Source of the DNA: a virus
Taxonomy: Duplodnaviria; Heunggongvirae; Uroviricota; Caudoviricetes
Reading direction: 5' to 3' (one strand)
Virus record (IMG/VR): IMGVR_UViG_2667527522_000001
DNA length: 50,608 nt
Shown here: piece after piece, positions 1-50,608 of the stretch
Layout: each line of letters begins with the position of its first letter
Numbering within the stretch: the first letter of the stretch is position 1
Translations under genes and position numbers: made by a program
The notes under the pieces: generated by a model
Database searches by the model: none
The model's input: the letters and a program-made list of their open reading frames with translations, nothing else
What the model was told of the DNA's origin: nothing

Positions 1-861
1 ATGGTTGACAATGTTTTTAAGAAGAAATTGGCATCAATTAAGAACGAACATGTGTCGGTGTTAGATAGTTACAAAGTAAGATCATTTAAAGAGACTCATA
101 GCGACACGGCCTGTATTGTGCGTATTATTGAAATATATTCACTGAATAAGCTGCGAGCTAAAGGTGAAAAGCTGTATTCACTTACGGGGTTAACAGTACC
201 TGATACGGAAACTGTGGCGAATGAGATCAACCTGCTCCTGAGCCGTTATGCCCAGTTGTGTCGTCAGGAAGAGGAAGAGTTATCTTTCCGGCAGCGTGAA
301 GTGACAAATGCGGAAGTTGCATGGAAAAGCACATTCTCAAAAAACGGCGTCAGTAGCATTGCTGAAGCCAAAACGAATAAAATGGGGCATGCTGAACGAG
401 CGGATGCTGAACGGTATTACCATCTGGCTGTTTCCCGGTTGAATGAACAACATAGTCGATTGAGCACGATCAAGCTTTTGCCGGGAGTACTGGCCGATGA
501 AGGAAACTACATTGGGAAGGGAATCGATAAGCGTTTACTGAATATATTTCCTCAATCCGGCCAGATCCCTGCTGATTTTATTTCTGTATTTAATGACAGT
601 GACGTTGTCCGTGATATTAAATTTATTACTGATGCACTCAAGTCTTTATCTGATTCCGTGAGTGAAATTATTAGTCGTTGTAGCGTTCCAACTGATCGTT
701 ATGTATTAAATAACGGTGGAATGGCAAGAGCTATGGCTTACAGGGAGTACTATCGAGCAGATAATTATGTATTACGTTCAGTCGTAAGTGACCGGGATTA
801 TGTTGAGCATGTAATGAAATACAATCTGGTTACTGAGTACAAAAATAAAATCTTTTCTTAA
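1..861 (+). CDS. Hypothetical protein in scaffold position upstream of the capsid gene; may be 5'-truncated by the window edge
   Basis: 286-codon frame open from base 1; ends 22 bp before the GpN-like gene; no family recognisable by eye. Confidence 0.4.
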   Translation: MVDNVFKKKLASIKNEHVSVLDSYKVRSFKETHSDTACIVRIIEIYSLNKLRAKGEKLYSLTGLTVPDTETVANEINLLLSRYAQLCRQEEEELSFRQREVTNAEVAWKSTFSKNGVSSIAEAKTNKMGHAERADAERYYHLAVSRLNEQHSRLSTIKLLPGVLADEGNYIGKGIDKRLLNIFPQSGQIPADFISVFNDSDVVRDIKFITDALKSLSDSVSEIISRCSVPTDRYVLNNGGMARAMAYREYYRADNYVLRSVVSDRDYVEHVMKYNLVTEYKNKIFS

Positions 862-883
862 ATACTTAAAAAGGTGAAAAACT

Positions 884-1888
884 ATGTATGCCTTCAAAAC
901 TGAAAGGCCGGACGCAGCACGTCGTTATCATAATAAATTCGTCACTGGCACTAACTATCAGGAAGAATCAAACAGACGCTTTGCATTAAGCGAACCTACT
1001 GAAAATATACTGCGTACCTCAATTCTGGAATCCGGGTGGCTTATTAAAAATATTACCCTACGTGATGTTAACGCCGTGTCAGGTAATGCCGTCAATATTG
1101 GTGCCAGTGAACTGTATACCGGACGTGTGGATGGTGGCCGTTTCCACAAAAAAATGGCAATCAATGGTACGGAGTTCTTTCTGACAGAGACGGATACCTG
1201 CGCCCGGATCAGCTATTCCGATATGTCTCATATTTACCATACCGGCGTGCCGGATGAGTTTGAGAAAACGGTTGAGAGCTTTTTTGCCCAGGCATATGCG
1301 CTGGACATGCTGCGGGTCGGTTTCAACGGTGTGTCGATTGCAAATACTACAAACCCGGAAATCAATAAAAAAGGCGAGGATGTCAATATTGGCTGGCATG
1401 CACTGGCGAAAGCCTACGGGAACGGAAAGCAAATCATCTCTGAGCCTGTCACTCTGGGAGAGACTGGCACCTGGAAAAATATTGATGCTCTGGCCAACCA
1501 TCTGATTACAGAGCTTATTGCTGAGCAGTTTCGTGAAGATCCTCGTCTGGTTGTACTGGTTGGGGCAGAGCTGGCAGCACATCAACGCCTGAAGTTATTT
1601 AATGCCGCAGACCGCCCGTCTGATGTGAATGCGGCACAGATGGCTACAAGTTCTGTTGCTGGCCGCTTTGCGTTTATTCCCCCGTTTATGCCGGGTAAGC
1701 GTCTGGCAGTAACGACGCTGGATAATCTGCATATTTACACTCAGGCGATAACACGCTGGTTTCGTGCTGAGTTTGATGATGAAAGCAGTGAATACGTGCA
1801 TTCCTACCTGCGCAATGAAGGTTATGCACTCGGTGAACCTGAACTGTACGCGGCTGTTGATGAGTGCACCCTGACGTTTGCGGATTGA
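884..1888 (+). CDS. P2-family (GpN-like) major capsid protein
   Basis: 334 aa; motifs GFNGV, NIGW, EDPRLVVLVG, LDNLHIY line up with P2 gpN as I recall it; SD-like aaaggtg upstream. Confidence 0.6.
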   Translation: MYAFKTERPDAARRYHNKFVTGTNYQEESNRRFALSEPTENILRTSILESGWLIKNITLRDVNAVSGNAVNIGASELYTGRVDGGRFHKKMAINGTEFFLTETDTCARISYSDMSHIYHTGVPDEFEKTVESFFAQAYALDMLRVGFNGVSIANTTNPEINKKGEDVNIGWHALAKAYGNGKQIISEPVTLGETGTWKNIDALANHLITELIAEQFREDPRLVVLVGAELAAHQRLKLFNAADRPSDVNAAQMATSSVAGRFAFIPPFMPGKRLAVTTLDNLHIYTQAITRWFRAEFDDESSEYVHSYLRNEGYALGEPELYAAVDECTLTFAD

Positions 1889-1901
1889 CTTAGCGACAGA
1901 A

Positions 1902-1930
1902 AGACCCGCTCAGAGGCGGGTCTCGTTTAC
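1902..1930 (+). terminator. Rho-independent terminator-like hairpin after the capsid gene
   Basis: GACCCGC-loop-GCGGGTC stem directly after the stop codon; weak T tract. Confidence 0.4.
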
Positions 1931-2085
1931 AGCATCAGGAAAAATGAAGAACTATTTTTAAGCAGAGGCTTAAGCATGCCAGCGTTAATTAATCCAGGCA
2001 ATGATCAGTTTTCGGTTATAAATTTCTTGCCTCACCAGGAATGCGCGGGATATAGTTTAAAGGTTGCCGCAAAATCGGCAGCCGG

Positions 2086-2141
2086 GCGTAGGAACCCGTG
2101 TTATCTGAAGGCGATACTACACGCGCTAGGCGTGTTTTTTT
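2086..2141 (+). promoter_or_regulatory. seqA-like target box followed by hairpin and T7 run (candidate immunity terminator)
   Basis: GTAGGAAC...TCTGAAGG box at 2088-2111; CACGC-loop-GCGTG stem plus TTTTTTT at 2120-2141. Confidence 0.45.
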
Positions 2142-2261
2142 GTGTCGCAGCTTTGACTCACCTAAAATTTATGGTGTGGTGGCTGATTGTATTTTTTTAT
2201 TTTTTACGCCACATCATCAGAATTATGGTAGTCCAGGCGGGGCAGCTTTCGGGCTGGCCGG

Positions 2262-2289
2262 TATCCTTCAGAGCCGGTATTCCTACCCC
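2262..2289 (+). ncRNA. seqB-like element, candidate CI-RNA-type antisense core
   Basis: TATCCTTCAGAGCCGGTATTCCTAC is the same-strand reverse complement of both halves of the flanking boxes. Confidence 0.4.
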
Positions 2290-2310
2290 CGTCTGGGCTA
2301 CCACCCATGA

Positions 2311-2352
2311 GCGTAGGAACTCCGGTGGTAGCGTTACCCGCTATCTGAAGGA
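2311..2352 (+). promoter_or_regulatory. seqC-like target box overlapping the Shine-Dalgarno of the first alpha-operon ORF
   Basis: GTAGGAAC...TCTGAAGGAGG; AGGAGG sits 10 nt before the ATG at 2363. Confidence 0.45.
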
Positions 2353-2362
2353 GGTTGCCATT

Positions 2363-2566
2363 ATGGCTACAGTCCCTGCTTTATCTCACCCTGAATTTAC
2401 CTTTGTCTTTCTGGCTGTCCGCCGTACAGACCGTGATGCCCGTCCACGCCCTGTGCGTGTAATCGCAGAATGCGAGCATGCTGCACGCCTTAAACTTGCC
2501 ACTGAATTTATCCTGAGCTTTGCTGCCCGTATCCCTGTGAAAAGAGCCGGGGAGGTGGTTGCATGA
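2363..2566 (+). CDS. Small hypothetical protein, first ORF after the immunity region
   Basis: 67-codon ORF with strong SD; the longer 1976-2566 frame upstream is probably not coding. Confidence 0.4.
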   Translation: MATVPALSHPEFTFVFLAVRRTDRDARPRPVRVIAECEHAARLKLATEFILSFAARIPVKRAGEVVA

Positions 2567-2799
2567 AATCCATGAATTTTAAGCAAGGCTGCATATTGAG
2601 TGAACAGGGGGAGAGTCGTCTGTTACGGGCGGCACTGGCCAGTGAGTTTCTTGCAGAGGTCTTGTCCGTGCCCACAGTGAATGGAGCGAGAACTGTTTCA
2701 GCGGAAGGCGCTGCGGCTTTAGTGGCCTGTATTGCCGAACAACTGGATGGCGTTGTTAAGGAAACCAGCACAATTAAGGGAGTGATGCGCGATGAATAA
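2563..2799 (+). CDS. Small hypothetical protein
   Basis: 78 aa; ATGA overlap with upstream ORF, translationally coupled. Confidence 0.45.
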   Translation: MKSMNFKQGCILSEQGESRLLRAALASEFLAEVLSVPTVNGARTVSAEGAAALVACIAEQLDGVVKETSTIKGVMRDE

Positions 2800-3202
2800 T
2801 AATCAAAATTTAAAGGCGCATGCTTTACGAACAGCAGTCTTACGCTACTACATTGCTGATGCATTCATTTCCTTAATGGTGCGTGTTCATAATGAACCTG
2901 TTTATATTGAAGATGGCGAACGAATAGAACTCTCCCACGAAAAAGTGGTGAGTAATATTATTTACCATATTGAAATGCCGTGGGTGAATGAGTTTGGGGC
3001 TGATGCTGGTTGCATACTGGCCGCAGAGAAACTGGAAAAAATGCTTAAACCAGGCTTTATGTCAGAAAATATTCGCCTGTCAGTTTTTGGTGTCACAGAG
3101 ATGCGTGAGGTTTACCGGGATATTATTTTCGGAGCACCTGATGGCGAACTACCCGAAGGTTTTGAATTTGTGAAGCCGGAAGGTCAGGAGGTGCTGCTGT
3201 GA
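2792..3202 (+). CDS. Hypothetical protein
   Basis: 136 aa; stop overlaps the primase GTG start. Confidence 0.5.
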   Translation: MNNNQNLKAHALRTAVLRYYIADAFISLMVRVHNEPVYIEDGERIELSHEKVVSNIIYHIEMPWVNEFGADAGCILAAEKLEKMLKPGFMSENIRLSVFGVTEMREVYRDIIFGAPDGELPEGFEFVKPEGQEVLL

Positions 3203-5886
3203 AAACACCGTCTGTATCCACGATTTCCGGAGCTGCAATTGGGCGCTGGCCTTATATCCTGTCAGCATTAGGTATTAAAGTACCGTCCGCAGGACATCAT
3301 GGGGCTTGCCCTGCCTGTGGTGGAAAAGATCGTTTTCGACTGGACGATAAAGCGGGGCGAGGGACGTGGTTTTGTAATCAGTGCGGTCATGGCGATGGTC
3401 TTGATCTGGTTCGTCTGGTGACAGGAAGAAAGATAAAAGAAGTCGCCGGGATGGTATCTGAGGCGCTTGCATTACCAGAAATACAGGAGAAGCCCGCATT
3501 GCCAGCCAGGAAAAAGGCCGCAGGAAAAGAAGCGGGCGCGGAGCGATATACCAGACTCAGACAGCAGTCCTGCAATGGTGAGCCGGTCTATCTGACAAAT
3601 AAGAGCTTACACGGGTATTCACTTCCCTTGCTGTCACAGCCTTTGAATCTGGCCGGAATAACATTTTCCACCGGTTCATTACTGCTGCCTTTGACGGATA
3701 TTTCCGGGAATATTACTGGTGGCCAGCTTATCAATCCTGACGGGGATAAAAGTCTGCTGCCCGGTAGCCAGCTGTCTGGCGCATTCATTGCCCTGACCGA
3801 TATACCCGCTGAAACACCTGAACAGGTGATTATCACTGAGGGTTTTGCCACGGCGCTTACCGTCAGTCTGCTGACTGAAGGATGGATCGTGGCGGCTGTC
3901 GCTGCCACCAATTTACTGAAGGTGACGGAGCAGATCCGAAAACGCTGGCCGGAAACCCGGATCATTCTGGCCGGAGATAATGATCTGGCTGACGGCAAAG
4001 AAAACACCGGGCGTATTCAGGCAGAGAAAGCCGCCAAAGCGGTGGATGGCTGGGTAACGCTCCCTCCGGTACGCCATAAGGCTGACTGGGATGATTATCG
4101 GCAGGAAGTGGGGAAAGAACGGGCGAGAGATGCCTTTCGTGAAGAAATGACGCTGCATGGCAAAGGGCAGACCCGTTTACCAGAAGGGTTCCGGCTGACA
4201 AAAGAATATTTGTGGTACGACAAGCTGGTTAATAAGTCTGATGGTGATACAGAGATACGTAATATCAAAATTTGCAGTCCGTTGCGGGTGACGGCAATCA
4301 CCAGTGATGCTGATGGAAGTAATTACGGGCGTTTGCTGGAATGGGAAGATACCAACGGAAACAGCCGTAAATGGGCAATGCCGATGGAGATGCTGGGCGG
4401 TAGCGGGGAAGAACTGCGCCGCGTTCTGCTGGTTAACGGGCTTTCTTACATCAACATTAACGGCATGGCCAGAGCATTCCTGATGGAATATATCTCGCTG
4501 TGTAAACCGGACAGAAAAGTAACCTGTGTGAATAAAACTGGCTGGCACGGCGGGGTTTACGTTCTCCAGGATGAAGTGATAGGGCGCGAAGCCCAGTCAG
4601 TCATCTTACAAACATCGAGTGTGCAGGGGCGTGATTTTCGTGTCAGCGGCACATCAGAGGGCTGGCGTGAAAATATAGGCCGTTATTGCATAAAGAATGC
4701 CCGTCTTGCCTTTGCGGTGAGTCTGGCATTTGCTGCCCCCCTTCTGAAACTGGTTGGTATCGGCGGTGGAGGTTATCACCTCAAAGGGGAATCCACAGAC
4801 GGTAAAACCACGACGATGAAAGTGGCTGCATCAGTATGTGGTGGAACAGATTTCTGGCATACGTGGCGGGCGACGGGGAATGCCTTAGAAGGAACGGCGA
4901 GCCGCCGCAATGATGCCACGCTGATGCTGGATGAAATCCGGGAGGTTGACGGCAGGGAGGCGGGAAATATCGCTTATATGCTGGCTAACGGGCAGGGCAA
5001 AGCCAGAGCCAGAACAGATGGTTCGGTAAGGGAAACCAACCGCTGGAATCTGTTGTTTCTGTCTACCGGGGAACTGTCACTGGTAGAGCATGCGGCAAGC
5101 GCCGGGGAACGTACGTATGCCGGGGTTGAGGTCAGAATGATCCAGATCCCAAGCGATTCGGGCAAGTATGGCGTGTTTGAAGAACTTCATGGCTTCAGTA
5201 GCGGGAAAACCCTGGCTGAGCATCTTGAGCAGCACGTAGCGCATTATCATGGTGCACCATTCCGCGACTGGCTGTATTGCCTGACCGCTGATCTGCCGGA
5301 ACTGACCAGTCAGGCGAAAGCCTTATTGAAAGAGTATACCCGAAGGCTGACGCCGGAAAATGCCGGGAATCAGGTTGGCCGGGCTGTTACCCGTTTTGCT
5401 CTGGTTGCGATGGCCGGGGAGCTGGCCACAAAAGCGGGCATCACAGGATGGCCGGAGGGAGAGGCCTTTCGTGCCGCTCAAAGCTGTCTGGCTGCATGGA
5501 TGGCTGACCGGGGCCATACAGCTAATCAGGAAGATAAAGCGGCACTTGAACAGGTTCGGGACTTCATGACGCGTAATCAGTTCAGTCGGTTTGCTGACTG
5601 GAATGACGACAGGAACCGGCCTGTTTCAATGATGGGATTCAGAAAAGTCGATAAAGGAGACAACGTGACAGAGCCGGTTGTGACGTTCTACGTTCTCCCG
5701 TCAGGCTGGAAGGAGATCTGTAAGGGATTTGACTCGCGTAAGGTGGCCAGGTTGTGTGTGGACGCGGGCTGGCTGAAACCCGGTGAAGATGGCCGGACGC
5801 AAAACAGCATTCGCCTGCCAGAAATAGGGCTTAAACGTGTGTACCAGTTCAATACACAGGTACTGGGAAGCGCTGAACCTGAGTGA
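3199..5886 (+). CDS. P4 alpha-type primase/helicase
   Basis: 895 aa; N-terminal CPACGG...CNQCGHGDG zinc-binding motif; long central and C-terminal region; GTG start with AGGAGG SD. Confidence 0.88.
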   Translation: MKTPSVSTISGAAIGRWPYILSALGIKVPSAGHHGACPACGGKDRFRLDDKAGRGTWFCNQCGHGDGLDLVRLVTGRKIKEVAGMVSEALALPEIQEKPALPARKKAAGKEAGAERYTRLRQQSCNGEPVYLTNKSLHGYSLPLLSQPLNLAGITFSTGSLLLPLTDISGNITGGQLINPDGDKSLLPGSQLSGAFIALTDIPAETPEQVIITEGFATALTVSLLTEGWIVAAVAATNLLKVTEQIRKRWPETRIILAGDNDLADGKENTGRIQAEKAAKAVDGWVTLPPVRHKADWDDYRQEVGKERARDAFREEMTLHGKGQTRLPEGFRLTKEYLWYDKLVNKSDGDTEIRNIKICSPLRVTAITSDADGSNYGRLLEWEDTNGNSRKWAMPMEMLGGSGEELRRVLLVNGLSYININGMARAFLMEYISLCKPDRKVTCVNKTGWHGGVYVLQDEVIGREAQSVILQTSSVQGRDFRVSGTSEGWRENIGRYCIKNARLAFAVSLAFAAPLLKLVGIGGGGYHLKGESTDGKTTTMKVAASVCGGTDFWHTWRATGNALEGTASRRNDATLMLDEIREVDGREAGNIAYMLANGQGKARARTDGSVRETNRWNLLFLSTGELSLVEHAASAGERTYAGVEVRMIQIPSDSGKYGVFEELHGFSSGKTLAEHLEQHVAHYHGAPFRDWLYCLTADLPELTSQAKALLKEYTRRLTPENAGNQVGRAVTRFALVAMAGELATKAGITGWPEGEAFRAAQSCLAAWMADRGHTANQEDKAALEQVRDFMTRNQFSRFADWNDDRNRPVSMMGFRKVDKGDNVTEPVVTFYVLPSGWKEICKGFDSRKVARLCVDAGWLKPGEDGRTQNSIRLPEIGLKRVYQFNTQVLGSAEPE

Positions 5887-5912
5887 TTATCGCGTGAGTC
5901 TTATTTTTATGA

Positions 5913-6103
5913 GGTAACACTGGTAACAGAGGTAACACCCGTTACTGATGCGGTTCTTCAGTGTTACCAGTCAAAAATACTGACTGGTAACAGAGGTAAC
6001 AAAAAATGGTGTGTTACCACGCGTTACCTCTTGATTTTGCTAACTGGTAACAGATTAAATCCTTTTAAATCAATAGCGTTACACGTGTTACCAGTGTTAC
6101 ACG
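5913..6103. repeat. Iteron cluster, candidate replication origin or cis replication region
   Basis: At least 6 direct GGTAACA and 4 inverted TGTTACC copies in about 190 bp directly after the primase gene. Confidence 0.55.
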
Positions 6104-6168
6104 TTCAGAACAAGAGGTAGGGATCCAAATCCCTTCTTCTGGCGGGCAACAGTATAGGGCACAGAACG

Positions 6169-6441
6169 ATGAAGATGATGAGAATGTACTGCCCCACATG
6201 TCAGGCAGTAGCACGGATAGGTAAAACAAACAGGAAACACCCACAACTGTACGATGTGTACTGCTATTGCTCTAATGTGGAGTGCGGTCACTCGTTTGTG
6301 ATGAATGTTGCTTTCTCCCATTCCGTTAGTCCAAGCGCGCTGAACGGGCAGGGAAGGGTTAAAGAGCTGATTGATGCAATTCCACCCGAGGAACGGGAAA
6401 AGGCTTTAAAGTTGCTGCTGGCTGCGCAAAAGAATGGGTAA
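6169..6441 (+). CDS. Ogr/Delta-family zinc-finger late activator
   Basis: YCPTCQ...(22 aa)...CSNVEC cysteine spacing as in P2 Ogr. Confidence 0.65.
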   Translation: MKMMRMYCPTCQAVARIGKTNRKHPQLYDVYCYCSNVECGHSFVMNVAFSHSVSPSALNGQGRVKELIDAIPPEEREKALKLLLAAQKNG

Positions 6442-7120
6442 AGTATGCGTCGGGAATGGCCGATCTGTTCCCGGAACCTGAACACAGGATTTCAGTTTAT
6501 ACGGTCATAAAATTATTATTTTTCAACTGGTTATCTTCTTCATGTTTCACAAACCTTCATAAAATCACACACCTAAAATTAATTATCCATTTAATATCAT
6601 AGAGTTGCGTATTCAGGCCATAGATTCGACGGACAGTAAAACTGAAAAAAAATGAATTTCTTTTCATTCTTTTCAGTTCCTGTATCGCAGTACATCTCGA
6701 GGACTGGCACGGACTGGCGGTATCGTTTGTAAAAAATCCAGGCTGAAAATTTTTAGTGATATGAAAACCGCAGGCGGGTGCGGTGTAGTGCCGTTTTGGT
6801 CTGTCGAGCGTATATTTTCCTTTTTCACGATTGCTGCATATCAAAACGAATGTGCAGATATCAGGCCGTGTCAAACCGTGAATCGTGGAGCCTAAATGCC
6901 CAAACTACGTTTGTAGACCTAGCTAGGGGAAGGTTTCCACATATACTGCTACCTATCTTCCAGTCGCTGGTGAGGATCAAGGTAAGCTAACTGGTGAACA
7001 AGAAAAGTACTTTCGTATCTTGCGTACTCGTTTTTTTTGATTAGTATGTACAGGTAGTAACTGGATGGTGAGAATTCGTCATAACTTATCAAATTGCATG
7101 ATGTTTATAGAGTATGAGTA

Positions 7121-8002
7121 ATGAGTCATAATAAAAAGGAATATGCTAAATTTTTCCGTCGCCCCATTTTTTCATCCTTAGCAAAAGGTAAGGATATTTC
7201 GGATTTATTTGGGAGTTTTGATTCTTACTGCTATGAAACACTGTTTTCAAACAATGATAATAATGAACATGAGATTTCACTAAGGGATTTATTTACATCA
7301 TTATATGATTTTTTGCGTCTGAATTATAGAAATGAATATGTTTATAAGACAGCACTTGTCAATAAAATAATATTCGGTAAGCACAGCCCAAAAACAAGTT
7401 CGTCGTCCATAGAGTTACCAATTAAAAACTCTATAGTGGATGTTGCGGTGTTTAATGGTACGTCTACAGCTTACGAGATTAAGACAGAGTATGATTCACC
7501 AAAAAGGTTGATTACTCAAGCCCCTGATTATTTGGATGTTTTTGATAAAGTGTATATAGTTACACATCCAGAGTATGCAAGTAAATATTGTGCTTTAAAT
7601 CTCCCCAGAGTGGGAGTTATGGTTTTGAATAAAAAAGATCAATTGAGTGTCATTAAGGAGGCAGATTCAAATATTGATTATATTAAAAGTGACAGCTTGT
7701 TTTCAGTTCTTAGAAAGGAAGAGTTCTTAGCTATAATAGAAGATTACACTTCAACTAAAATAAATATGCCTAACGGATTGGTTTATGAATATTGTAAAGA
7801 GATATTCATGCAGATGCCATTAAACATAGCAAATAAATACTTTATCTCTGCTATGAAAAAAAGATGTAACGATAAAGTTTTTTTGGATTATATTTATTCT
7901 CTTCCAGCATGTTTACGTGTTTTAGGTTATGCAACACCATTATCAAGAAAGCAAAAAGAATTCATCATGAATTTGATGGATGTAAAAATTAAAATTTGTT
8001 GA
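7121..8002 (+). CDS. Hypothetical protein, gene A of an AT-rich accessory cassette; possible PD-(D/E)xK-like nuclease motif
   Basis: 293 aa; markedly AT-rich versus flanks; IVDVAVF...AYEIK resembles a D...ExK signature. Confidence 0.65.
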   Translation: MSHNKKEYAKFFRRPIFSSLAKGKDISDLFGSFDSYCYETLFSNNDNNEHEISLRDLFTSLYDFLRLNYRNEYVYKTALVNKIIFGKHSPKTSSSSIELPIKNSIVDVAVFNGTSTAYEIKTEYDSPKRLITQAPDYLDVFDKVYIVTHPEYASKYCALNLPRVGVMVLNKKDQLSVIKEADSNIDYIKSDSLFSVLRKEEFLAIIEDYTSTKINMPNGLVYEYCKEIFMQMPLNIANKYFISAMKKRCNDKVFLDYIYSLPACLRVLGYATPLSRKQKEFIMNLMDVKIKIC

Positions 8003-8466
8003 TATCCTCAGGAGTTGTAAGTTATGTATAGCCCATATTTGTATGCGAGAAGTACAGAGTTATTATGCCTTAGGGACCTCGTTGCGAAGGGAGTTAGCCT
8101 AAATGGTCTGCTACCAATTTTAGAACCAATTAACGTCAATACGAGAAATTTATTAACATGTTTAAATGTTTGGAATTCTGACATAATTGTTATCCTTAAT
8201 CCTTATCAGGAAGATTTTTCTTCACACAATAACGTCTTAACTTTAAATCAAAATTTATCAAGTGTATTAACAAATAAAAATAATATCATCTCTGGATATC
8301 TTATTCAGCCCAATACAACGATTAATGATATTAATAATTGGTTGAATGCTAACTTAAATAGACGAGTTGCACTTCTATATGATAATCCATCATTATCCAA
8401 CTCTGATATTCGGTAATGGTGCCAACTTACTGATTTAGTGTATGATGGTGTTTTTGAGGTGCTCCC

Positions 8467-8742
8467 GTGGCTTCCATCTCCATCAGTTGTCCCTCCTGCT
8501 CAGCTACTGAAGGCGTGGTGCGTAACGGTAAAAGTACTGCCGGACATCAGCGCTATCTCTGCTCTCACTGCCGTAAAACATGGCAACTGCAGTTCACTTA
8601 CACCGCTTCTCAACCCGGTACACACCAGAAAATCATTGATATGGCCATGAATGGTGTTGGATGCCGGGCAACCGCCCGCATTATGGGCGTTGGCCTCAAC
8701 ACGATTTTACGTCACTTAAAAAACTCAGGCCGCAGTCGGTAA
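8467..8742 (+). CDS. insA: IS1 InsA
   Basis: [42 protein letters not shown] matches IS1 InsA. Confidence 0.9.
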
Positions 8743-9164
8743 CCTCGCGCATACAGCCGGGCAGTGATGTGATTGTCTGCGCTGAAATGGACGAACAGTG
8801 GGGCTACGTCGGTGCTAAATCACGTCAGCGCTGGCTGTTTTACGCGTATGACAGGATACGGAGGACGGTTGTGGCGCACGTCTTCGGTGAACGCACTCTG
8901 GCCACACTGGAGCGTCTTCTGAGCCTGCTGTCGGCCTTTGAGGTCGTGGTATGGATGACGGATGGCTGGCCGCTGTATGAATCCCGCCTGAAGGGAAAGC
9001 TGCACGTAATCAGCAAGCGTTACACTCAGCGCATTGAGCGACATAACCTGAATCTGAGACAACATCTGGCAAGGCTGGGACGGAAGTCACTGTCGTTCTC
9101 AAAATCGGTGGAGCTGCATGACAAAGTCATCGGGCATTATCTGAACATAAAACACTATCAGTAA
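8661..9164 (+). CDS. insB: IS1 InsB frame (transposase InsAB' by -1 frameshift)
   Basis: IS1 InsB sequence; slippery AAAAAAC at about 8718. Confidence 0.85.
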
Positions 9165-9729
9165 GTTGGAGTCATTACCTGATATTCAGTTGTTGGCGAC
9201 AAATCAATTGATTAGTTATCATGTTGTTTTAAATAATAAAATGCTTCCTAATCAGTGCGCTCTTCTTCCTTTGTCGAAGTTAATTATTATTAGCGATAAC
9301 TTTAGAAAGTTAGCAAAAAATGCTGATTATAATGGGCCGGAACTTTTCACGCACGCACATCAATTCGTGGGACAAAATTACTTAGGATTTGGCGATTATA
9401 CAATTACTGGCCAGGTACTAGATCTTGGAGGTGGTCAACCTTCTGCTGTTGCCGCACATTTGGTGTTCAAGAATTTACAAGCGAATACAGTTTGGATTCG
9501 TCATTTTGTATCAAGCAACACGCAACGAGGAAGTTCAAATGTTACTGCAAAATTTTTAGATGTTTCAGATCAAATTACAAATCTTGTTCCCCAACATCCA
9601 ACCCAGTTTGGCAGCAACATTGGTCTTAACTATTATTATTACAATAGTCAACCAACTGTAAGGCATTTCCCTGGGTTGCCAAAAAACAAACAGTATCAAA
9701 TTACTCACCATATTTGTTTCATGCTGGAT

Positions 9730-10953
9730 TTAATAGCAGGTCGTATTTAATAAGCTAGCGTACCATTCCATCATTACTTGTCGATCTTTAATATATTGCG
9801 CATGATTGTAAGTACCTCGAATAGAGTTCTTATCAACATGCGCAAGCTGCATTTCAATCCAGGCACTTTCAAACCCATGCTCATGCAAGATGGTGCTCAT
9901 GGTATGCCTGAAACCGTGACCCGTTAACCGACCGTGATAACCCAGTAGTTTTATCACTTTGTTGATGCTGGCTTCGCTCATTGGTTTACTGACGTCATTC
10001 CGGCCAGGGAAAACGAGGCTGTAATTCCCTGTTATTTCTTGCAGCTTTTTCAGGATATTGATCGCCTGAGTTGATAACGGAACCAGATGGGGGCGGCGTT
10101 TCTTCATCCGTTCTTTGGGGATCTCCCATAAGGCATTATCTAAATCAAACTCAGCCCATTCCGCTGCACGTAGTTCAATTGTTCGCACGCCTGTTAGCAT
10201 CAACAGCTGCGTGGCGTATTTGGTAACTAAACTGCCCTGATAGTTATCCAGAGCATTAACGAACTCGGGCAACTCGCTTTCAGTCAGGAACGGGAAGTGT
10301 TGGGTTTTAGGTTTGTTGAGTGCGATAGCTAAATCGGGTGCAAAATTATACTTTGCTCTACCAGTGGCAACAGCATAACGAAGCACTTCACCACAGCGGC
10401 GGCGGATCTTACTGGTTTGCTCTAGCGCACCTCTTTTCTCTATTTTTTGCAGGACGGTTAGCAGTTCTAATGGTTCAATCTGCTCAATTGGGCGCTGGCC
10501 GATAAAAGGAAAAATATCCTTTTCCATACAATTGAGAACCTCTTTTGCATAACCCTCTGACCAGGTGGCTTTTTTCGATGAGTGCCATTCTCTGGCCACA
10601 GACTCAAAGCTGTTCTCATGCGCGAACTGCAAAGCAATCTTATCTGCTTTTCTGGCTTCACTTGGGTTTATCCCGTTGGCTAACATCGAACGCGCTTCAT
10701 CACGTTTGGTACGTGCCTGTGCCAACGACACATCGCCATATACGCCAAAGGAAATCATCTTAGGCTTACCTGCAAAGCGATAGCGAAAACGCCAGCCTTT
10801 ACTGCCCGCTGTGTCGATCAGGAGTGATAGCCCCATACCATCGTTAAGCGTATAGGGTTTGTCCTTCGGTTTTGCTCTTTTTATTTGGATGTCAGATAGC
10901 AGCATGTGTATAGAAAAAAGATCGAACTCAGTTATACACAATGTTATACGCAA
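9730..10953 (-). CDS. int: Tyrosine integrase, P4 type
   Basis: 407 aa; N-terminal KRAKPKDKPYTLNDGMGLSLLI arm-binding type; C-terminal GHGFRHT...LAHVD...RGTYNHAQY catalytic region. Confidence 0.9.
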   Translation of the reverse strand: MRITLCITEFDLFSIHMLLSDIQIKRAKPKDKPYTLNDGMGLSLLIDTAGSKGWRFRYRFAGKPKMISFGVYGDVSLAQARTKRDEARSMLANGINPSEARKADKIALQFAHENSFESVAREWHSSKKATWSEGYAKEVLNCMEKDIFPFIGQRPIEQIEPLELLTVLQKIEKRGALEQTSKIRRRCGEVLRYAVATGRAKYNFAPDLAIALNKPKTQHFPFLTESELPEFVNALDNYQGSLVTKYATQLLMLTGVRTIELRAAEWAEFDLDNALWEIPKERMKKRRPHLVPLSTQAINILKKLQEITGNYSLVFPGRNDVSKPMSEASINKVIKLLGYHGRLTGHGFRHTMSTILHEHGFESAWIEMQLAHVDKNSIRGTYNHAQYIKDRQVMMEWYASLLNTTCY

Positions 10954-11075
10954 AGATGTATAGATTCCATTAGAAATAATGGTACTTTGCTGGACGAGTA
11001 TAAGGAGATGATATCAGTTAAAACAGTGAGTTATGGAATTAATTGAACTTAGTGAGAAGTGTTCATGGTGTCCCC

Positions 11076-11090
11076 TGCAGACATCTACTT
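11076..11090 (-). other. 15-nt match to the 3' terminus of tRNA-Arg (argW-like); att core candidate
   Basis: Minus strand reads CTGCAGGGGACACCA, preceded by non-tRNA sequence. Confidence 0.5.
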
Positions 11091-11153
11091 GAAGCGGCAG
11101 GGGATTGATTAGAATGGTATTTTTTAGATGTGAGAAATATTTTACCCGCTATT

Positions 11154-11354
11154 TTACCCATTGGCGCGGCTTAAGAGCTTATTTTTGAATTCACAATGGT
11201 CACGATATAACCATCTTGCTCGCCCGTGGATAACTTTGGCTTTTGGCAGGTCGCCGGACTTAATCCGGTCATAGATGAAGGTTTTACCGAAGCCAGTATC
11301 GGCCATGATGAATTTCAAATCAACCAGTGAATCAGGCTGTAGTTCGTGTTGCAT
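11154..11354 (-). CDS. alpA: AlpA-family DNA-binding protein (excisionase or regulator)
   Basis: 66 aa; LKFIMADTGFGKTFIYDRIKSGDLPKAKVIHGRARW resembles AlpA/Vis. Confidence 0.8.
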   Translation of the reverse strand: MQHELQPDSLVDLKFIMADTGFGKTFIYDRIKSGDLPKAKVIHGRARWLYRDHCEFKNKLLSRANG

Positions 11355-11364
11355 GAGTGCTATC

Positions 11365-11380
11365 TCCGAATAGGGAATCG
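11365..11380 (-). other. 16-nt match to the T-arm region of tRNA-Arg (argW-like); att core candidate
   Basis: Minus strand reads TTGCAGGTTCGATTCC, 19 nt upstream of the alpA start. Confidence 0.5.
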
Positions 11381-11390
11381 AACCTGCAAA

Positions 11391-11410
11391 TCAGGTAATA
11401 AAAAACCGCC
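11391..11410 (-). terminator. Rho-independent terminator ending the prophage leftward early operon
   Basis: Minus strand CCGCC-TGAT-GGCGG followed by TTTTTT. Confidence 0.5.
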
Positions 11411-11667
11411 ATCAGGCGGCTTGGTGTTCTTTCAGTTCTTCAATTCGAATATTGGTTATGTCTGCATGCGCTATCTGCGCCCATAGCATCCAGTGGTCAT
11501 AGCAGTCATTGATGTTCTCTGCTTCGATAACTCTGTTGAATGGCTCTCCATTCCATTCACCTGTGACTCGAAAGTGCATTTATCATCTCCATAAAACAAA
11601 ACCCGCCGTAGCGAGTTCAGATAAAAGAAATCCCCGCGAGTGCGAGGATAGTTACTTGTTCATATTA

Positions 11668-11967
11668 TTAATCGTCAATGTATTTTGAGCATTGTGGGCA
11701 ATCATCAATCCCACAATACGATTCATATGCATCCTTTATTGCGTCGCGGGCTTCAGTAAGAGTATTGAATAAGTTGCAGCTATTATCTTTTTGATATAGG
11801 TAAGTTCCTAATTTATAAGCAGAAGAAGCATCATTTCCGCTGTCTAAAATTACATCGTTATGGATTCTGCACCTTGCAAGAACTCCTGATCCCATAAGGG
11901 TCTGCATAGCCCATTGCTCTTGATCTTCACACAAATCATGAATGCTCATTTCAACACCTCTCTTCAC
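11668..11967 (-). CDS. Hypothetical early-left protein
   Basis: 99-codon ORF. Confidence 0.45.
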   Translation of the reverse strand: MKRGVEMSIHDLCEDQEQWAMQTLMGSGVLARCRIHNDVILDSGNDASSAYKLGTYLYQKDNSCNLFNTLTEARDAIKDAYESYCGIDDCPQCSKYIDD

Positions 11968-12063
11968 GTTTCACACACGTTAAGATTAACAGTGTTTTTA
12001 CATGCTTTGGAAGATTTATTTTATAAAAACTCTTTTAATACAAATAGATATAATAGTTCACTA

Positions 12064-12765
12064 TTATAGCTCCTTTAATCGAGGCGGTTCTGGTAGAGGC
12101 ATCCAGTGGGTTACCTCTTTGAGATACAGGTCTTCGCCATCACCGTCATCCCAAGTTGGATTGCCATCATTAAACCAGTCGACATATACGCCGACCTGAG
12201 TGTTGGGGATGTTTGGTGGGTAGTTGTTTTTAAAGTCAGCTGCTAACACATAGCATTGTCGCTCTCCCATTTCTGGCATTCGCTCACTACAGCTTATCCA
12301 ACCATCCGGAGTTACCGGATAGTTGCCGGGTTCTTTAATGTGCAAGCGAGGCTCACCATCTTTTGGCTCAGGCCACTGGCGCTCCATGTTGATCTTCAAT
12401 TTATCTTCCATAGCAGCGGTAATTTCAGCATCGCTGATGCCAGCACGGCGCTGTGCATCCCACAACAGAAACTGCATATCAGCCCACTCGCTAAGATCGT
12501 CTGGTTCGGCTGCGGCTTCAAGTGCCTCTTTTGAGAGATGTTTCAGCGGACCAATGGGGCCAACGCAGCCAAATGTGGAGTCAGACCATTTGGCATGCTC
12601 GTGGCGAATCTGTTCGCGTTCCAGTGATGCCAGTGCAATTCGTGCCAGTTCCATTTGTTCGCCACGAGTAAGTCCGTTATCAAGCGGATTTTTAATGAAT
12701 AATTTGATACGTTCTTTGGTTATAGCGCTCATATCACTCTCCTTTGATGCGAATGCCTGTTGCAA
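12064..12765 (-). CDS. Hypothetical early protein with DGNPTW...W C-terminal motif
   Basis: 233-codon ORF; probable start at MSAITKERIK. Confidence 0.55.
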   Translation of the reverse strand: MQQAFASKESDMSAITKERIKLFIKNPLDNGLTRGEQMELARIALASLEREQIRHEHAKWSDSTFGCVGPIGPLKHLSKEALEAAAEPDDLSEWADMQFLLWDAQRRAGISDAEITAAMEDKLKINMERQWPEPKDGEPRLHIKEPGNYPVTPDGWISCSERMPEMGERQCYVLAADFKNNYPPNIPNTQVGVYVDWFNDGNPTWDDGDGEDLYLKEVTHWMPLPEPPRLKEL

Positions 12766-23924: not shown

Positions 23925-24632
23925 CCCATCCCAATCCATTCAATACCAGAAAGAAAGCGTCGAGCGAGCTTTAACGTGCGCTAACTGCGGTCAGAAGCTG
24001 CATGTGCTGGAAGTTCACGTGTGTGAGCGTTGTATATATGAATGCTTAAATATGGTGGAACATAATGAGAAATATAAGCAACATAGACGAATTAAGAAAT
24101 AAATTATCATATGATGATGTTTTAGGTGTACTTAGATGGAAAGTGTCTCCTTCTAATAATGTTAAGGTTGGCAGTGTTGCTGGTTACATTAGGAGTGATG
24201 GTTATAGGATGTTAACTATCGATGGTGTAATTACTTATGCTCACCACGTTATATGGATGATAAATAATGGTGAGATTCCATTAGGGTATAAAATTGATCA
24301 TATAAATGGAGTAAGGTCAGATAATAGGCTATCTAATCTTCGATTGGTTACACACCAACAGAATGCACAGAACCAAAAGAGAAAAATAACCAATTCGTCA
24401 GGAGTGACTGGAGTATATTTCAATAAAGAGAGATGTAAGTGGATTGCGAATATATGCGTAGATGGGCGCACCAAATATCTTGGAATATTTGCTAGCATCA
24501 TTGACGCTATTGCAGAAAGGAAGAGGGCAGAAAAAGAACTGGGTTTTCATGAAAACCATGGCAGACCATAACTGCGCAGAACTGATGAGCGATCCGAATA
24601 GCTCAATGTACGAGGAAGAAGACGATGAGTGA
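23917..24632 (+). pseudogene. ninF: ninF split by a homing-endonuclease insertion
   Basis: N-terminal 39 codons to ...HVCERC at 24033; matching C-terminal CAELMSDPNSSMYEEEDDE at 24573-24632, in frame if 24034-24572 is removed. Confidence 0.6.
24065..24571 (+). CDS. HNH homing endonuclease with AP2-like DNA-binding region
   Basis: HHVIW...IDHINGVRSDNRLSNLRLVTHQQN HNH motif; own SD GGTGGA. Confidence 0.8.
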   Translation: MRNISNIDELRNKLSYDDVLGVLRWKVSPSNNVKVGSVAGYIRSDGYRMLTIDGVITYAHHVIWMINNGEIPLGYKIDHINGVRSDNRLSNLRLVTHQQNAQNQKRKITNSSGVTGVYFNKERCKWIANICVDGRTKYLGIFASIIDAIAERKRAEKELGFHENHGRP

Positions 24633-24837
24633 TTACCTGAAATGGTATCTCTGCCACCGCTGGTTAATTAAGTTTGCTGTAAAAGACTGGATGACAGCGG
24701 ATGCCAACAAGCTTAAGCAAAGAAAAGACTATTACTACGCCAGAATGAAGGAAAACTACTGCTCAATTCGCACTCGCATATTTATTAAAAAAGACCTTCA
24801 GTCAATTCTTCAATTGCGAGGGAAGGTAAATGGCTAA
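24625..24837 (+). CDS. Small hypothetical protein
   Basis: 70-codon ORF. Confidence 0.35.
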   Translation: MSDYLKWYLCHRWLIKFAVKDWMTADANKLKQRKDYYYARMKENYCSIRTRIFIKKDLQSILQLRGKVNG

Positions 24838-25120
24838 CCTACGCAAAGAAGCGCGCGGCAGAGAATGCCAGGTACGTATTTACGGCGTATGCAATGGCAA
24901 TCCTGAAACTACAGTTCTGGCACATTACCGGATGGCTGGAATTTGCGGAACGGGAATGAAGCCTGACGACCTGATCGGCGCATGGGCTTGTAGCGCGTGT
25001 CGCGATGAAATCGACCGACGCACCCATAATCTCGACAACAAAGACGCCAGACTTTACCACCTCGAAGGCGTGATCAGGACGCAGGCGATACTGCTGAAGG
25101 AGGGGAAGATTAAGTCATGA
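24830..25120 (+). CDS. Cys-rich nin-region protein (YbcO-like)
   Basis: MANLRKEARGRECQVRIYGVCNGNPETTVLAHYRMAG...CSACRDEIDRR. Confidence 0.55.
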   Translation: MANLRKEARGRECQVRIYGVCNGNPETTVLAHYRMAGICGTGMKPDDLIGAWACSACRDEIDRRTHNLDNKDARLYHLEGVIRTQAILLKEGKIKS

Positions 25121-25641
25121 ACGGTAAAAGATATCCAACACAAAAAGAAATCAATGAATTGTATGAATATAATAGCGAAACAGGTTTGTTTATATACAAG
25201 AGAAGAGAAAGTGCAAGAGAGTGCTGGAATTCAACATATGCCGGTAAGATTGCTGGTTCTATAGATGAAAAAGGATACGTTCGTATATCTGTAAATAAAA
25301 AAGTTTGTCGAGCTCATAGAATCGCATGGATATCCTTTTATGGAAGTGAACCTGATGGGGAAATTGACCACATAAATGGAGTTAAAAGCGATAACAGAAT
25401 ATGCAATTTGCGCGTTGTAGATGATAAACAGAACTCAAGGAACAGAAAAAAGCCTATTAATAATCGCTCTGGAGTAATGGGGGTTGCCTACTATAAGAAG
25501 AATAAAAAGTGGGGCGCATATATAAACAGTGATAATAAAAAGATATTTCTTGGATTATACGATGACATATCTCTAGCCGTTAATGCCAGAAAATTGGCGG
25601 AATCACGATTGGGGTATCACCATAATCATGGGAGAGGATAA
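25117..25641 (+). CDS. Second HNH-AP2 homing endonuclease, paralog of 24065-24571
   Basis: HRIAW...IDHINGVKSDNRICNLRVVDDKQN; fits exactly between neighbouring stop and start codons. Confidence 0.8.
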   Translation: MNGKRYPTQKEINELYEYNSETGLFIYKRRESARECWNSTYAGKIAGSIDEKGYVRISVNKKVCRAHRIAWISFYGSEPDGEIDHINGVKSDNRICNLRVVDDKQNSRNRKKPINNRSGVMGVAYYKKNKKWGAYINSDNKKIFLGLYDDISLAVNARKLAESRLGYHHNHGRG

Positions 25642-49450: not shown

Positions 49451-50608
49451 TCACTCCACCTTTTCATCAAGCCAGTCCGCCCACCACTGCATCATTTCTC
49501 TGCGCTTATCCAGATACTGAGCATGGTTGTAAATCCCGCGCACAGATCCGCCGTTGGCATGTGCCAGTTGCACTTCAATAGCGTCAGCAGGCCATTCGTG
49601 CTCGTTCATAATCGTGCTGAATTCATGCCTGAATCCGTGACCGCTTTCCAGACCCTCATAGCCGATTTGTTTGATCACAAGCAATACCGCGTTCTCGCAG
49701 ATTGGCTTCTTCTTATCGTTGCGCCCGGCAAAAACAAACTCTGAGACTGGTTTGGTGATTGAGCTTAGCGTAGTGAGAAGTTCAACCACCTGGTCTGACA
49801 TCGGGACCACATGAATTTTTCGACCCTTCATCACACTGGCATCGATGGTGATAATCCTGTTTTCAAAATCGACGTTCTTCCATTGCATGGAACGAAGCTC
49901 TTTCGTTCTTAGGGCTGTGTAGCGTAAAACTCTGGTCGCAATGAGCGATACGATGCTTCCTGAAAATGTTGCCAGTGCTTTGTTGAATGCAGGGATCTGG
50001 TCTGCTGGAAGAAACGGGAAGTTCTTCTTGCGGTATCCTTTCATGGCGTCTGCAAGGTCAGGTGCCGGGTTATATTTAGCCCTGCCGGTGACAATAGCGT
50101 AACGGAAAACCTCGCCGCATCTTCTGCGTGCTTTGTTGGCTCGCTCCATTGCACCGCGATCTTCAAATCTGCGGATTACTTCCAGCAGTTGCATCGGCTC
50201 AATATCCTGAATTTCAAGACCGCCGATGATGGGTAAAATGTCGTCATCAAACATTTTGGCAAGTTCAGTTGCATAGCCTACTGACCAGACTTGCTTCTTG
50301 TGCTCGTACCATTCCTTGTAAATCGCACTAAATGAATTGTTGTTAGACGAAGTCTTTTTCGCCTTTACCGGATCGATGCCAACCGAGATGTCTTTCCTCG
50401 CAGTCCATGCCTTATCCCTTGCTTCCTGCAAAGTCATAAGCGGATATTTTCCGACAGTCAGGATTTTCTCCTTACCGTCAATCTTGTAGCGAAGCTGCCA
50501 TACCTTTTTCCCTGATACAGGGACATAAAGGTACAGGCCATTACCATCGAGAAGGCGGTATGGTTTTTCTTTCGGCTTTGCTGCTTCAATCTGCTTAACG
50601 GTGAGCAT
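49451..50608 (-). CDS. int: Tyrosine integrase, P4 type, IntS-like; start codon at the last bases of the window
   Basis: MLTVKQIEAAKPKEKPYRLLDGNGLYLYVPVSGKKVWQLRYKIDGKEK...GHGFRHEF...LAHANGGSVRGIYNHAQY. Confidence 0.9.
   Translation of the reverse strand: MLTVKQIEAAKPKEKPYRLLDGNGLYLYVPVSGKKVWQLRYKIDGKEKILTVGKYPLMTLQEARDKAWTARKDISVGIDPVKAKKTSSNNNSFSAIYKEWYEHKKQVWSVGYATELAKMFDDDILPIIGGLEIQDIEPMQLLEVIRRFEDRGAMERANKARRRCGEVFRYAIVTGRAKYNPAPDLADAMKGYRKKNFPFLPADQIPAFNKALATFSGSIVSLIATRVLRYTALRTKELRSMQWKNVDFENRIITIDASVMKGRKIHVVPMSDQVVELLTTLSSITKPVSEFVFAGRNDKKKPICENAVLLVIKQIGYEGLESGHGFRHEFSTIMNEHEWPADAIEVQLAHANGGSVRGIYNHAQYLDKRREMMQWWADWLDEKVE

Follow-up and report, generated by a model that had tools for sequence, protein, structure and literature searches.

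We conclude that the window, the whole 50,608-nucleotide stretch of DNA that was analysed, almost certainly spans two independent integrative elements inserted in tandem in argW (tRNA-Arg), with a common 16-bp crossover core. Sequence comparison assigns the integrase gene at 9730–10905 to a satellite of about 11 kb on the left, and identifies the neighbouring 66-aa gene as TorI, which serves the P22-like prophage on the right as its excisionase. The boundary between satellite and prophage is accordingly placed by these comparisons at 11065–11080, between the integrase and what had been taken for alpA. Both open reading frames of the alpA–integrase pair that the first-pass annotation had called within 9730–11354 are present, on the minus strand. 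Of the two models offered there, one gave the pair to the satellite and the other gave it to the prophage, and neither considered splitting it. The features as read here, with the evidence for each, are as follows.

1–9750, plus strand: satellite body, with a 286-aa ORF, a P2-family capsid homologue, an Ash/Icd-like ORF with C4 and isrK RNAs, a primase, Ogr/Delta, sce7726 and an IS1-split sce7725 (SK1144 collinearity; Pfam, NCBIfam, PHROGs, Rfam).
8412–9179: IS1 interrupting sce7725; its 8-bp target duplication, TGATATTC, occupies 8404–8411 and 9180–9187 (collinearity with SK1144 breaks and resumes here).
9730–10905, minus strand: satellite integrase, a P4/IntS-type tyrosine recombinase of 391 aa (domains; adjoins intact argW in 425 genomes without torI).
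10906–11064: the satellite's att arm next to its integrase, where TATACAC/GTGTATA-type repeats are candidate arm-type sites (identical to SK1144 up to the core).
11065–11080: 16-bp att core, ATGGTGTCCCCTGCAG, the hybrid satellite/prophage junction (exact breakpoints in genome and phage comparisons; published KplE1 core).
11081–11177: prophage-side arm of a KplE1-type attR, overlapping the 3' end of torI (collinear with MG1655 CPS-53 attR and HK620 attP).
11081–50608: P22-like (Lederbergvirus-type) prophage, torI to intS (annotation of the near-identical Ecol_276 locus).
11154–11354, minus strand: torI, the P22-like prophage's recombination directionality factor (excisionase), previously called alpA (100% identical to PDB 1Z4H; RefSeq; free phages).
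11374–11389: 16-nt copy of the argW T-arm, GGAATCGAACCTGCAA, 19 nt upstream of the torI start (argW match; conserved in MG1655, HK620 and D6).
11403–11422, minus strand: intrinsic-terminator-like hairpin, downstream of the ORF at 11412–11579 and upstream of torI (terminator scan).
49451–50608, minus strand: intS, which encodes the integrase of the prophage, TorI's partner (100% identical to Ecol_276 IntS; 98% to HK620 Int).

Two integrases and one excisionase

Under a longest-ORF rule the left-hand integrase ORF runs from 9730 to 10953; the ATG at 10905 is the RefSeq start in identical genomes and gives the 391-aa product of 9730–10905. This protein has the full P4/IntS-type architecture (Arm-DNA-bind_3, 3.7e-26; Phage_int_M, 2.7e-33; Phage_integrase, 2.2e-26). 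It shares the same domain set and 45% identity with IntS, a relationship that fits the common target of the two enzymes. Its best matches among 50,697 phage records are IntS-family enzymes, and no full-length match in those records exceeds about 47% identity. A promoter scan scored no σ70-like site between 10800 and 11800 on either strand and thus located no promoter for the integrase.

The 66-aa gene at 11154–11354 had been counted as alpA in the satellite core, and this assignment does not hold at the family level, as its product scores 12.7 bits (E=0.12) on Pfam Phage_AlpA (PF05930), below the gathering cut-off of 21 bits. All 66 of its 66 residues are identical to PDB 1Z4H, the 'Tor inhibition protein' (E. 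coli K-12 TorI), and the RefSeq matches are labelled torI. The excisionases of HK620 and Sf6 are likewise 100% identical to TorI (PMC2951348, PMC3509656). The alpA of the satellite itself lies 18 nt to the left of window position 1 (in SK1144, Ecol_276 and D6), where it adjoins the satellite's other att copy at the end opposite the integrase; it encodes 75 aa and scores 71.5 bits on the same Pfam family. TorI and this AlpA both fall in one broad excisionase PHROG, phrog_66, and align at only 27% identity over 51 residues.

The end of torI lies 73 bp from the 16-bp core, which makes it the terminal gene beside attR. In free phage genomes torI is found alongside the attP core and int: both torI and the attP core are present in HK620, Sf6, Kapi1, HF4s, N7 and others, with int adjacent wherever the annotation was read. 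The HK620 genome has int, the annotated attP core and hkaC (TorI) contiguous and co-oriented, and integration through such an attP puts int and torI at opposite ends of the prophage. The gene at 49451–50608 is annotated intS in an identical genome, and P22-like tailspike and virion genes adjoin it in continuity with the prophage. The same tandem array, minus the IS1, is present in strain Ecol_276, and there argW lies 162 bp upstream of the intS start in the same orientation, with the core at the argW 3' end; the argW-proximal att site of the prophage would thus lie about 160 bp past the right end of the window. The Ecol_276 annotation lists the P22-type genes of the prophage (capsid, gp4, gp10, DNA-transfer proteins and tailspike). 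The earlier claim that the prophage uses IntS in a tRNA-then-int arrangement is borne out by this position of argW and by the 98% identity to HK620 Int.

The module corresponds to that described at argW for KplE1 (CPS-53), HK620 and Sf6 by Panis, Mejean and Ansaldi (PMC2951348, PMC3509656). KplE1 begins with intS and ends with torI, HK620 and Sf6 share this conserved module, and excision in vitro, studied for KplE1 and HK620, needs IntS, TorI and IHF (PMC2951348, PMC3509656). The copy in the window agrees in its proteins (TorI 100% identical, IntS 98% identical to HK620 Int), in its identical 16-nt core, in an attR arm that is collinear including the published primer site, and in gene order, with intS beside argW and torI closing the far end. 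It differs from KplE1 in two respects: outside attR stands the integrase end of another element using the same core, not the dsdC flank, and the prophage is a full-length P22-like genome, whereas K-12 retains a 10-kb remnant.

The shared core and the element boundary

KplE1 (CPS-53) occupies argW, with a copy of a 16-nt core, CTGCAGGGGACACCAT, on either side (Panis et al., PMC2951348). The reverse complement of this core, which is the argW 3' end, stands at 11065–11080, between the integrase and torI. The second argW-derived 16-mer, at 11374–11389, lies on the other side of torI; each of the two is unique in the window, and neither was matched in any of 100 shuffles. ARAGORN found no complete tRNA in the window, and no match was obtained there with a 30-nt probe for the argW 3' end, allowing 3 mismatches or fewer, because the two argW fragments are split by 293 bp.

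The boundary was sought by megablast of 9100–12100 against 5426 complete E. coli genomes. Many strains match 9179–11080 alone, at 100%, and in these an annotated, intact tRNA-Arg comes immediately after the integrase. The prophage-free strain SK1144 equals the window base for base from the integrase through 11080 and diverges abruptly at 11081, the next sequence being intact argW in SK1144 and torI in the window. The two are collinear over the satellite as a whole (1 mismatch over 1–8411, 0 over 9188–11080), with the IS1 as sole interruption, and SK1144 reads dsdC, att, AlpA-like HTH, 286-aa ORF, P2-family capsid protein, Icd/Ash-like, primase, Ogr/Delta, sce7726, sce7725, integrase, argW, yfdC. 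Rightwards from 11065 the window is collinear with MG1655 CPS-53 attR, HK620 attP and strain D6. To the left of the core these sequences have three unrelated flanks, namely the integrase side of the satellite in the window, the intS side in HK620 and the dsdC side in MG1655 and D6. Eight phage genomes are collinear with 11065–11620 at 96–98% identity, with homology beginning exactly at 11065, and partial matches to the junction probe break exactly at 11065 or 11080. A match to SK1144 that extends to 11080, combined with collinearity from 11065 onwards behind three different left flanks, points to 11065–11080 as the junction.

The first-pass annotation had cited the tRNA fragments, and a terminator at 11391–11410, in favour of giving both genes to the satellite. 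The fragments are both real and the one at 11065–11080 does mark the junction; the other, at 11374–11389, is internal to phage genomes and carries no such weight. The hairpin scored at 11403–11422, as a terminator on the minus strand only, and it too lies inside HK620, Sf6 and other phages. Either feature as an element end was ruled out, as MG1655 CPS-53, HK620, Sf6 and others are collinear across both; being internal to free phage genomes, neither marks a boundary. The stretch of HK620 homologous to the hairpin region is annotated as the integration promoter, which 11374–11389 overlaps. The CUS-3 GenBank record annotates the second 16-mer as 'attR core'/att core and stops short of torI, a labelling that probably explains its att-like look; the published KplE1 core is 293 bp further out than this CUS-3 'att core'.

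Repeat motifs differ on the two sides of the core, and each is common to the far end of its own element. The TATACAC/GTGTATA-type repeats of the satellite side recur at the far end of the satellite. On the prophage side TATTTTACCC forms a tandem pair at 11138–11159, its 8-mer occurs three times upstream of intS, and the published attR primer attR-IHF2 matches 11158–11177 exactly. Published IntS P' sites have TAAA in common (PMC2951348, PMC3509656). The repeats flanking the core may therefore be read as putative arm-type sites.

The two elements were counted with 241-bp junction probes against the same 5426 complete E. coli genomes, a genome being scored where at least 80% of the probe was covered.

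Satellite integrase / intact argW, no torI: 425 of 5426 genomes.
dsdC / core / torI, no satellite, MG1655 included: 857 of 5426 genomes.
Satellite integrase / core / torI, the order of the window: 12 of 5426 genomes.
Reverse order (intS / core / alpA end of the satellite), which puts torI at one end and the satellite integrase at the other: 6 of 5426 genomes.

The claim that the integrase at 9730–10905 belongs to the satellite is confirmed by the 425 genomes in which it meets argW without torI. Strain D6 illustrates the reverse order, with dsdC, torI, a degraded prophage, intS, core, alpA, satellite, integrase and argW, so that about 20 kb separate torI from the satellite integrase and each stands with its own element. 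Among the 12 tandem genomes are several that retain the junction and diverge past about 11650, which indicates that different prophage bodies carry the same module. At the level of sequence, these comparisons demonstrate the gene identities, the exact breakpoint and the independent distribution of both elements.

Composition of the satellite

P4-like satellites are described as having seven components, int, psu, delta, sid, alpA, epsilon as well as alpha (PMC8628076). By Pfam and PHROGs the satellite here has an integrase, an alpha-type primase, a Delta-like zinc finger and, just outside the window, AlpA. It resembles the P4-like satellites of de Sousa and Rocha (PMC8628076) in its P4-type integrase by a tRNA, alpha-like primase (Zn-ribbon/Toprim/DUF927), Ogr/Delta zinc finger, AlpA, C4-family RNA and variable cargo by the integrase (sce7726/sce7725). 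It is not a canonical P4, however. Psu and Sid found no Pfam or PHROGs match among the satellite ORFs, and a 286-aa orphan followed by a diverged P2-family capsid homologue occupies those positions instead; alpA also differs in position, standing by the att site at the end opposite the integrase.

The capsid homologue is a diverged relative of the P2-family major capsid protein (PF05125, E about 1e-66; best phage match 48–50% identical), and the 286-aa ORF upstream of it is without a family match. The satellite also carries the C4 and isrK RNAs, the alpha-like primase and Ogr/Delta, and has the sce7726/sce7725 pair beside its integrase. In the literature we found nothing specific on sce7725/sce7726 or on satellites that encode a P2-type capsid. 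The N- and C-terminal halves of sce7725 flank the IS1. The IS1 was also considered as a link to the prophage-free strain AVS0155 and dropped, as the IS1 of that strain is at another site, between sce7725 and the integrase.

The direct repeat of the satellite is 20 bp long, ATGGTGTCCCCTGCAGGAAT, and contains the 16-bp core of the phage. The junction expected of an excised satellite (integrase-side arm, core, alpA-side arm) had 0 matches in IMG/VR and JGI metagenome contigs.

Excision, coupling and alternative readings

In the orientation of the window the array would read dsdC, att, satellite alpA, satellite body, integrase (9730–10905), core (11065–11080), torI (11154–11354), prophage, intS (49451–50608), core, argW. 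Its left part (dsdC, att, satellite alpA) and its right part (att core and argW) are outside the window, and the outer att sites are known from near-identical genomes (Ecol_276). The central junction is a chimeric attP-like site, composed of the integrase-side arm of the satellite, the common core and the torI-side arm of the prophage, and in this way it mimics a xis–int operon. We propose that the satellite's own integrase excises it, probably with the help of its own AlpA-family protein from the far end. Recombination by this integrase between the dsdC-proximal core and 11065–11080 would release the satellite and leave the junction seen in 857 genomes, while IntS, TorI and IHF would recombine the argW-proximal core with 11065–11080, release the phage and leave the junction seen in 425. 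The presence in the species of both product configurations and both tandem orders is consistent with this scheme.

Both elements are presumably still excision-competent in the strain of the window. At the hybrid junction the 20-bp repeat of the satellite is cut down to the 16 common bases, a loss that could impair satellite excision. Cross-reactivity may occur between the two integrases, which are 45% identical and use the same core. In other respects the array matches known tandem (piggy-back) integration at a single tRNA att site, with two elements, related integrases, one core, and both solo forms and both orders in the species. Set against the usual case nothing is unusual: the identity block is 20 bp for the satellite and 16 bp for the phage, and the hybrid keeps 16. 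The arrangement is known biology, an ordinary case in which a well-characterised phage module and a satellite occupy one tRNA att site in tandem.

It is unlikely, although less so than the readings discussed below, that the two genes are separate by descent and nevertheless form a working unit, either by read-through from torI into the satellite integrase or by TorI or IntS acting on the att sites of the satellite. The two genes are co-oriented with no minus-strand intrinsic terminator predicted between them, the junction mimics the torI–attP–intS arrangement of the phage, and the integrases share 45% identity, one domain set and the same 16-bp core. Against this, the arm repeat motifs differ between the elements, and the capsid, Ogr/Delta and C4-RNA genes of the satellite suggest a helper of the P2 type and not of the P22 type. 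The order seen in the window is rare (12/5426) and the reverse order occurs too, which gives no sign of selection for the juxtaposition, and the promoter scan of 10800–11800 scored no σ70-like site on either strand. We regard it as quite improbable that torI transcription runs into the satellite integrase so that induction of the P22-like prophage triggers excision of a P2-type satellite, or that TorI or IntS acts at the satellite att sites. If such cross-talk did operate, prophage induction would also mobilise the satellite or the whole array, and a phage and a non-cognate satellite would be accidentally coupled in their regulation.

That torI and the integrase are a single recombination module of a satellite ending at the terminator near 11400, as the first-pass annotation had favoured, is very improbable and refuted by the genome comparisons. 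The genes are indeed adjacent, co-oriented and 248 bp apart, like a xis–int operon, and TorI does share phrog_66 with the satellite AlpA, at 27% identity over 51 residues. Yet the same satellite ends at integrase and argW without torI in 425 genomes, the att core separates the two genes, and the 66-aa product, 100% identical to TorI, is encoded in free phage genomes. A Pfam-positive AlpA of the satellite's own stands at its other end, D6 carries one of the two genes at each end of the array, and HK620 and Sf6 have both the terminator and the second tRNA fragment in their interior. Comparison with related prophages in other genomes, a check proposed with that model, upheld it on both integrases and went against it on alpA and on the boundary.

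A lambda-style attL–int–xis prophage end at 9730–11354, with the right-hand IntS left to a third element, is extremely improbable and refuted by the comparisons: it has a superficial likeness to the lambda int–xis layout and two integrases of one family (45% identical) in its favour, but torI-bearing prophages end at torI, core and dsdC without this integrase in 857 genomes, the integrase stays with the satellite beside argW in 425, it has no full-length match above about 47% among the 50,697 phage records, IntS is 98% identical to the Int of HK620, where TorI, attP core and Int are contiguous, and the P22-like tailspike and virion genes by intS are continuous with the prophage. The pair does resemble lambda int–xis in combining a heterobivalent tyrosine integrase with a small winged-helix excisionase. 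Lambda, however, has both genes on one side of attP and keeps them together in the prophage, whereas here the core splits genes of different elements, which are found apart in the 425 and the 857 genomes.

For annotation, the tandem insertion of two elements at argW means that the boundary should be put at 11065–11080, that the 66-aa gene should be named torI, as the prophage excisionase, and that the integrase should be given to the satellite. No new biology is implied, and accidental coupling, to which we give a low probability, is the sole non-trivial possibility remaining. Because genes of the IntS/TorI family flank attP, an excisionase can come to abut a foreign integrase in tandem arrays, and an adjacent, co-oriented pair of a small HTH gene and an integrase is thus not necessarily a module.

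Capsid homologue and RNA elements of the satellite

The left end of the window lies within the ~11-kb satellite, where the following features were assigned:

1-861 and 884-1888, two open reading frames at the left end of the window
2063-2140, + strand, isrK (Rfam gathering-level match, 68.9 bits)
2221-2308, + strand, C4 antisense RNA (Rfam gathering-level match, 81.1 bits)

The satellite encodes a full-length but diverged homologue of the P2-family major capsid protein (PF05125, E about 1e-66), whose closest match among phage records is just 48-50% identical. Upstream of the capsid gene, a 286-aa ORF occupies the position expected for a scaffold gene; it had no match in Pfam, NCBIfam or PHROG. 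Neither Psu nor Sid was detected in the satellite. Supplying its own P2-type capsid protein differs from the canonical P4 strategy. A literature search returned no description of a satellite of this kind. The element is common: its integrase junction is present in at least 425 E. coli genomes.

Both RNA matches fall within an Ash/Icd-like ORF (1976-2566), and together suggest that the satellite has a P1/P4-type RNA immunity region.

Insertions and repeats

The variable slot adjoining the satellite integrase holds sce7726/sce7725, which may be a defence cargo pair. The sce7725-family gene is split in the window (8024-8416 and 9166-9750) by an insertion sequence:

8412-9179, IS1, 768 bp, with an 8-bp target duplication, TGATATTC (8404-9187 including the duplications)

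The gene is uninterrupted in the prophage-free E. coli SK1144, in the near-identical tandem array of Ecol_276, and in D6. Outside the window, the left end of the SK1144 satellite (L001, 5020-5110) has the pentanucleotide CCCAG repeated about 13 times in a row, between alpA and the dsdC-proximal att copy. For the nin region of the P22-like prophage (about 24065-25641), the annotation of the matching Ecol_276 stretch lists a split ninF along with two genes for HNH endonucleases, which suggests homing-endonuclease insertions.

The argW T-arm copy and the ends of CUS-3

The prophage excisionase gene torI is preceded by a short tRNA-derived sequence:

11374-11389, exact copy (16 nt) of the T-arm of argW, lying 19 nt upstream of where torI starts

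In these phages, two segments that follow directly on one another in the 3' end of argW lie on either side of torI. They are separated by 293 bp and keep the order and orientation that they have in the tRNA. The T-arm 16-mer is conserved in MG1655 CPS-53, HK620 and D6; in Erwinia phage Midgardsormr38 the fragment is in tandem duplicate (GGGAATCGAACCTG twice), and in Klebsiella phage Chronis it is absent. It is not required for the published 135-bp attR. The 16-mer may be what is left of an ancestral attP identity block that was once longer, or else part of a promoter or cII site, or a site for protein binding.

The CUS-3 GenBank record (CP000711.1) gives this T-arm 16-mer, TTGCAGGTTCGATTCC, as the att core, and therefore stops just before the expected position of torI. 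The core established by experiment for KplE1 is the neighbouring 16-mer, and the ends given for the CUS-3 prophage are probably off by about 300 bp.

Order of satellite and prophage at argW

E. coli D6 (NZ_CP010148.1, 3574951-3601191) carries the two elements in reverse tandem order: dsdC, torI, a degraded KplE1-like prophage, intS, core, satellite, int and argW. This order occurs in 6 of the 5426 complete E. coli genomes, and the argW-proximal position is thus open to either element.
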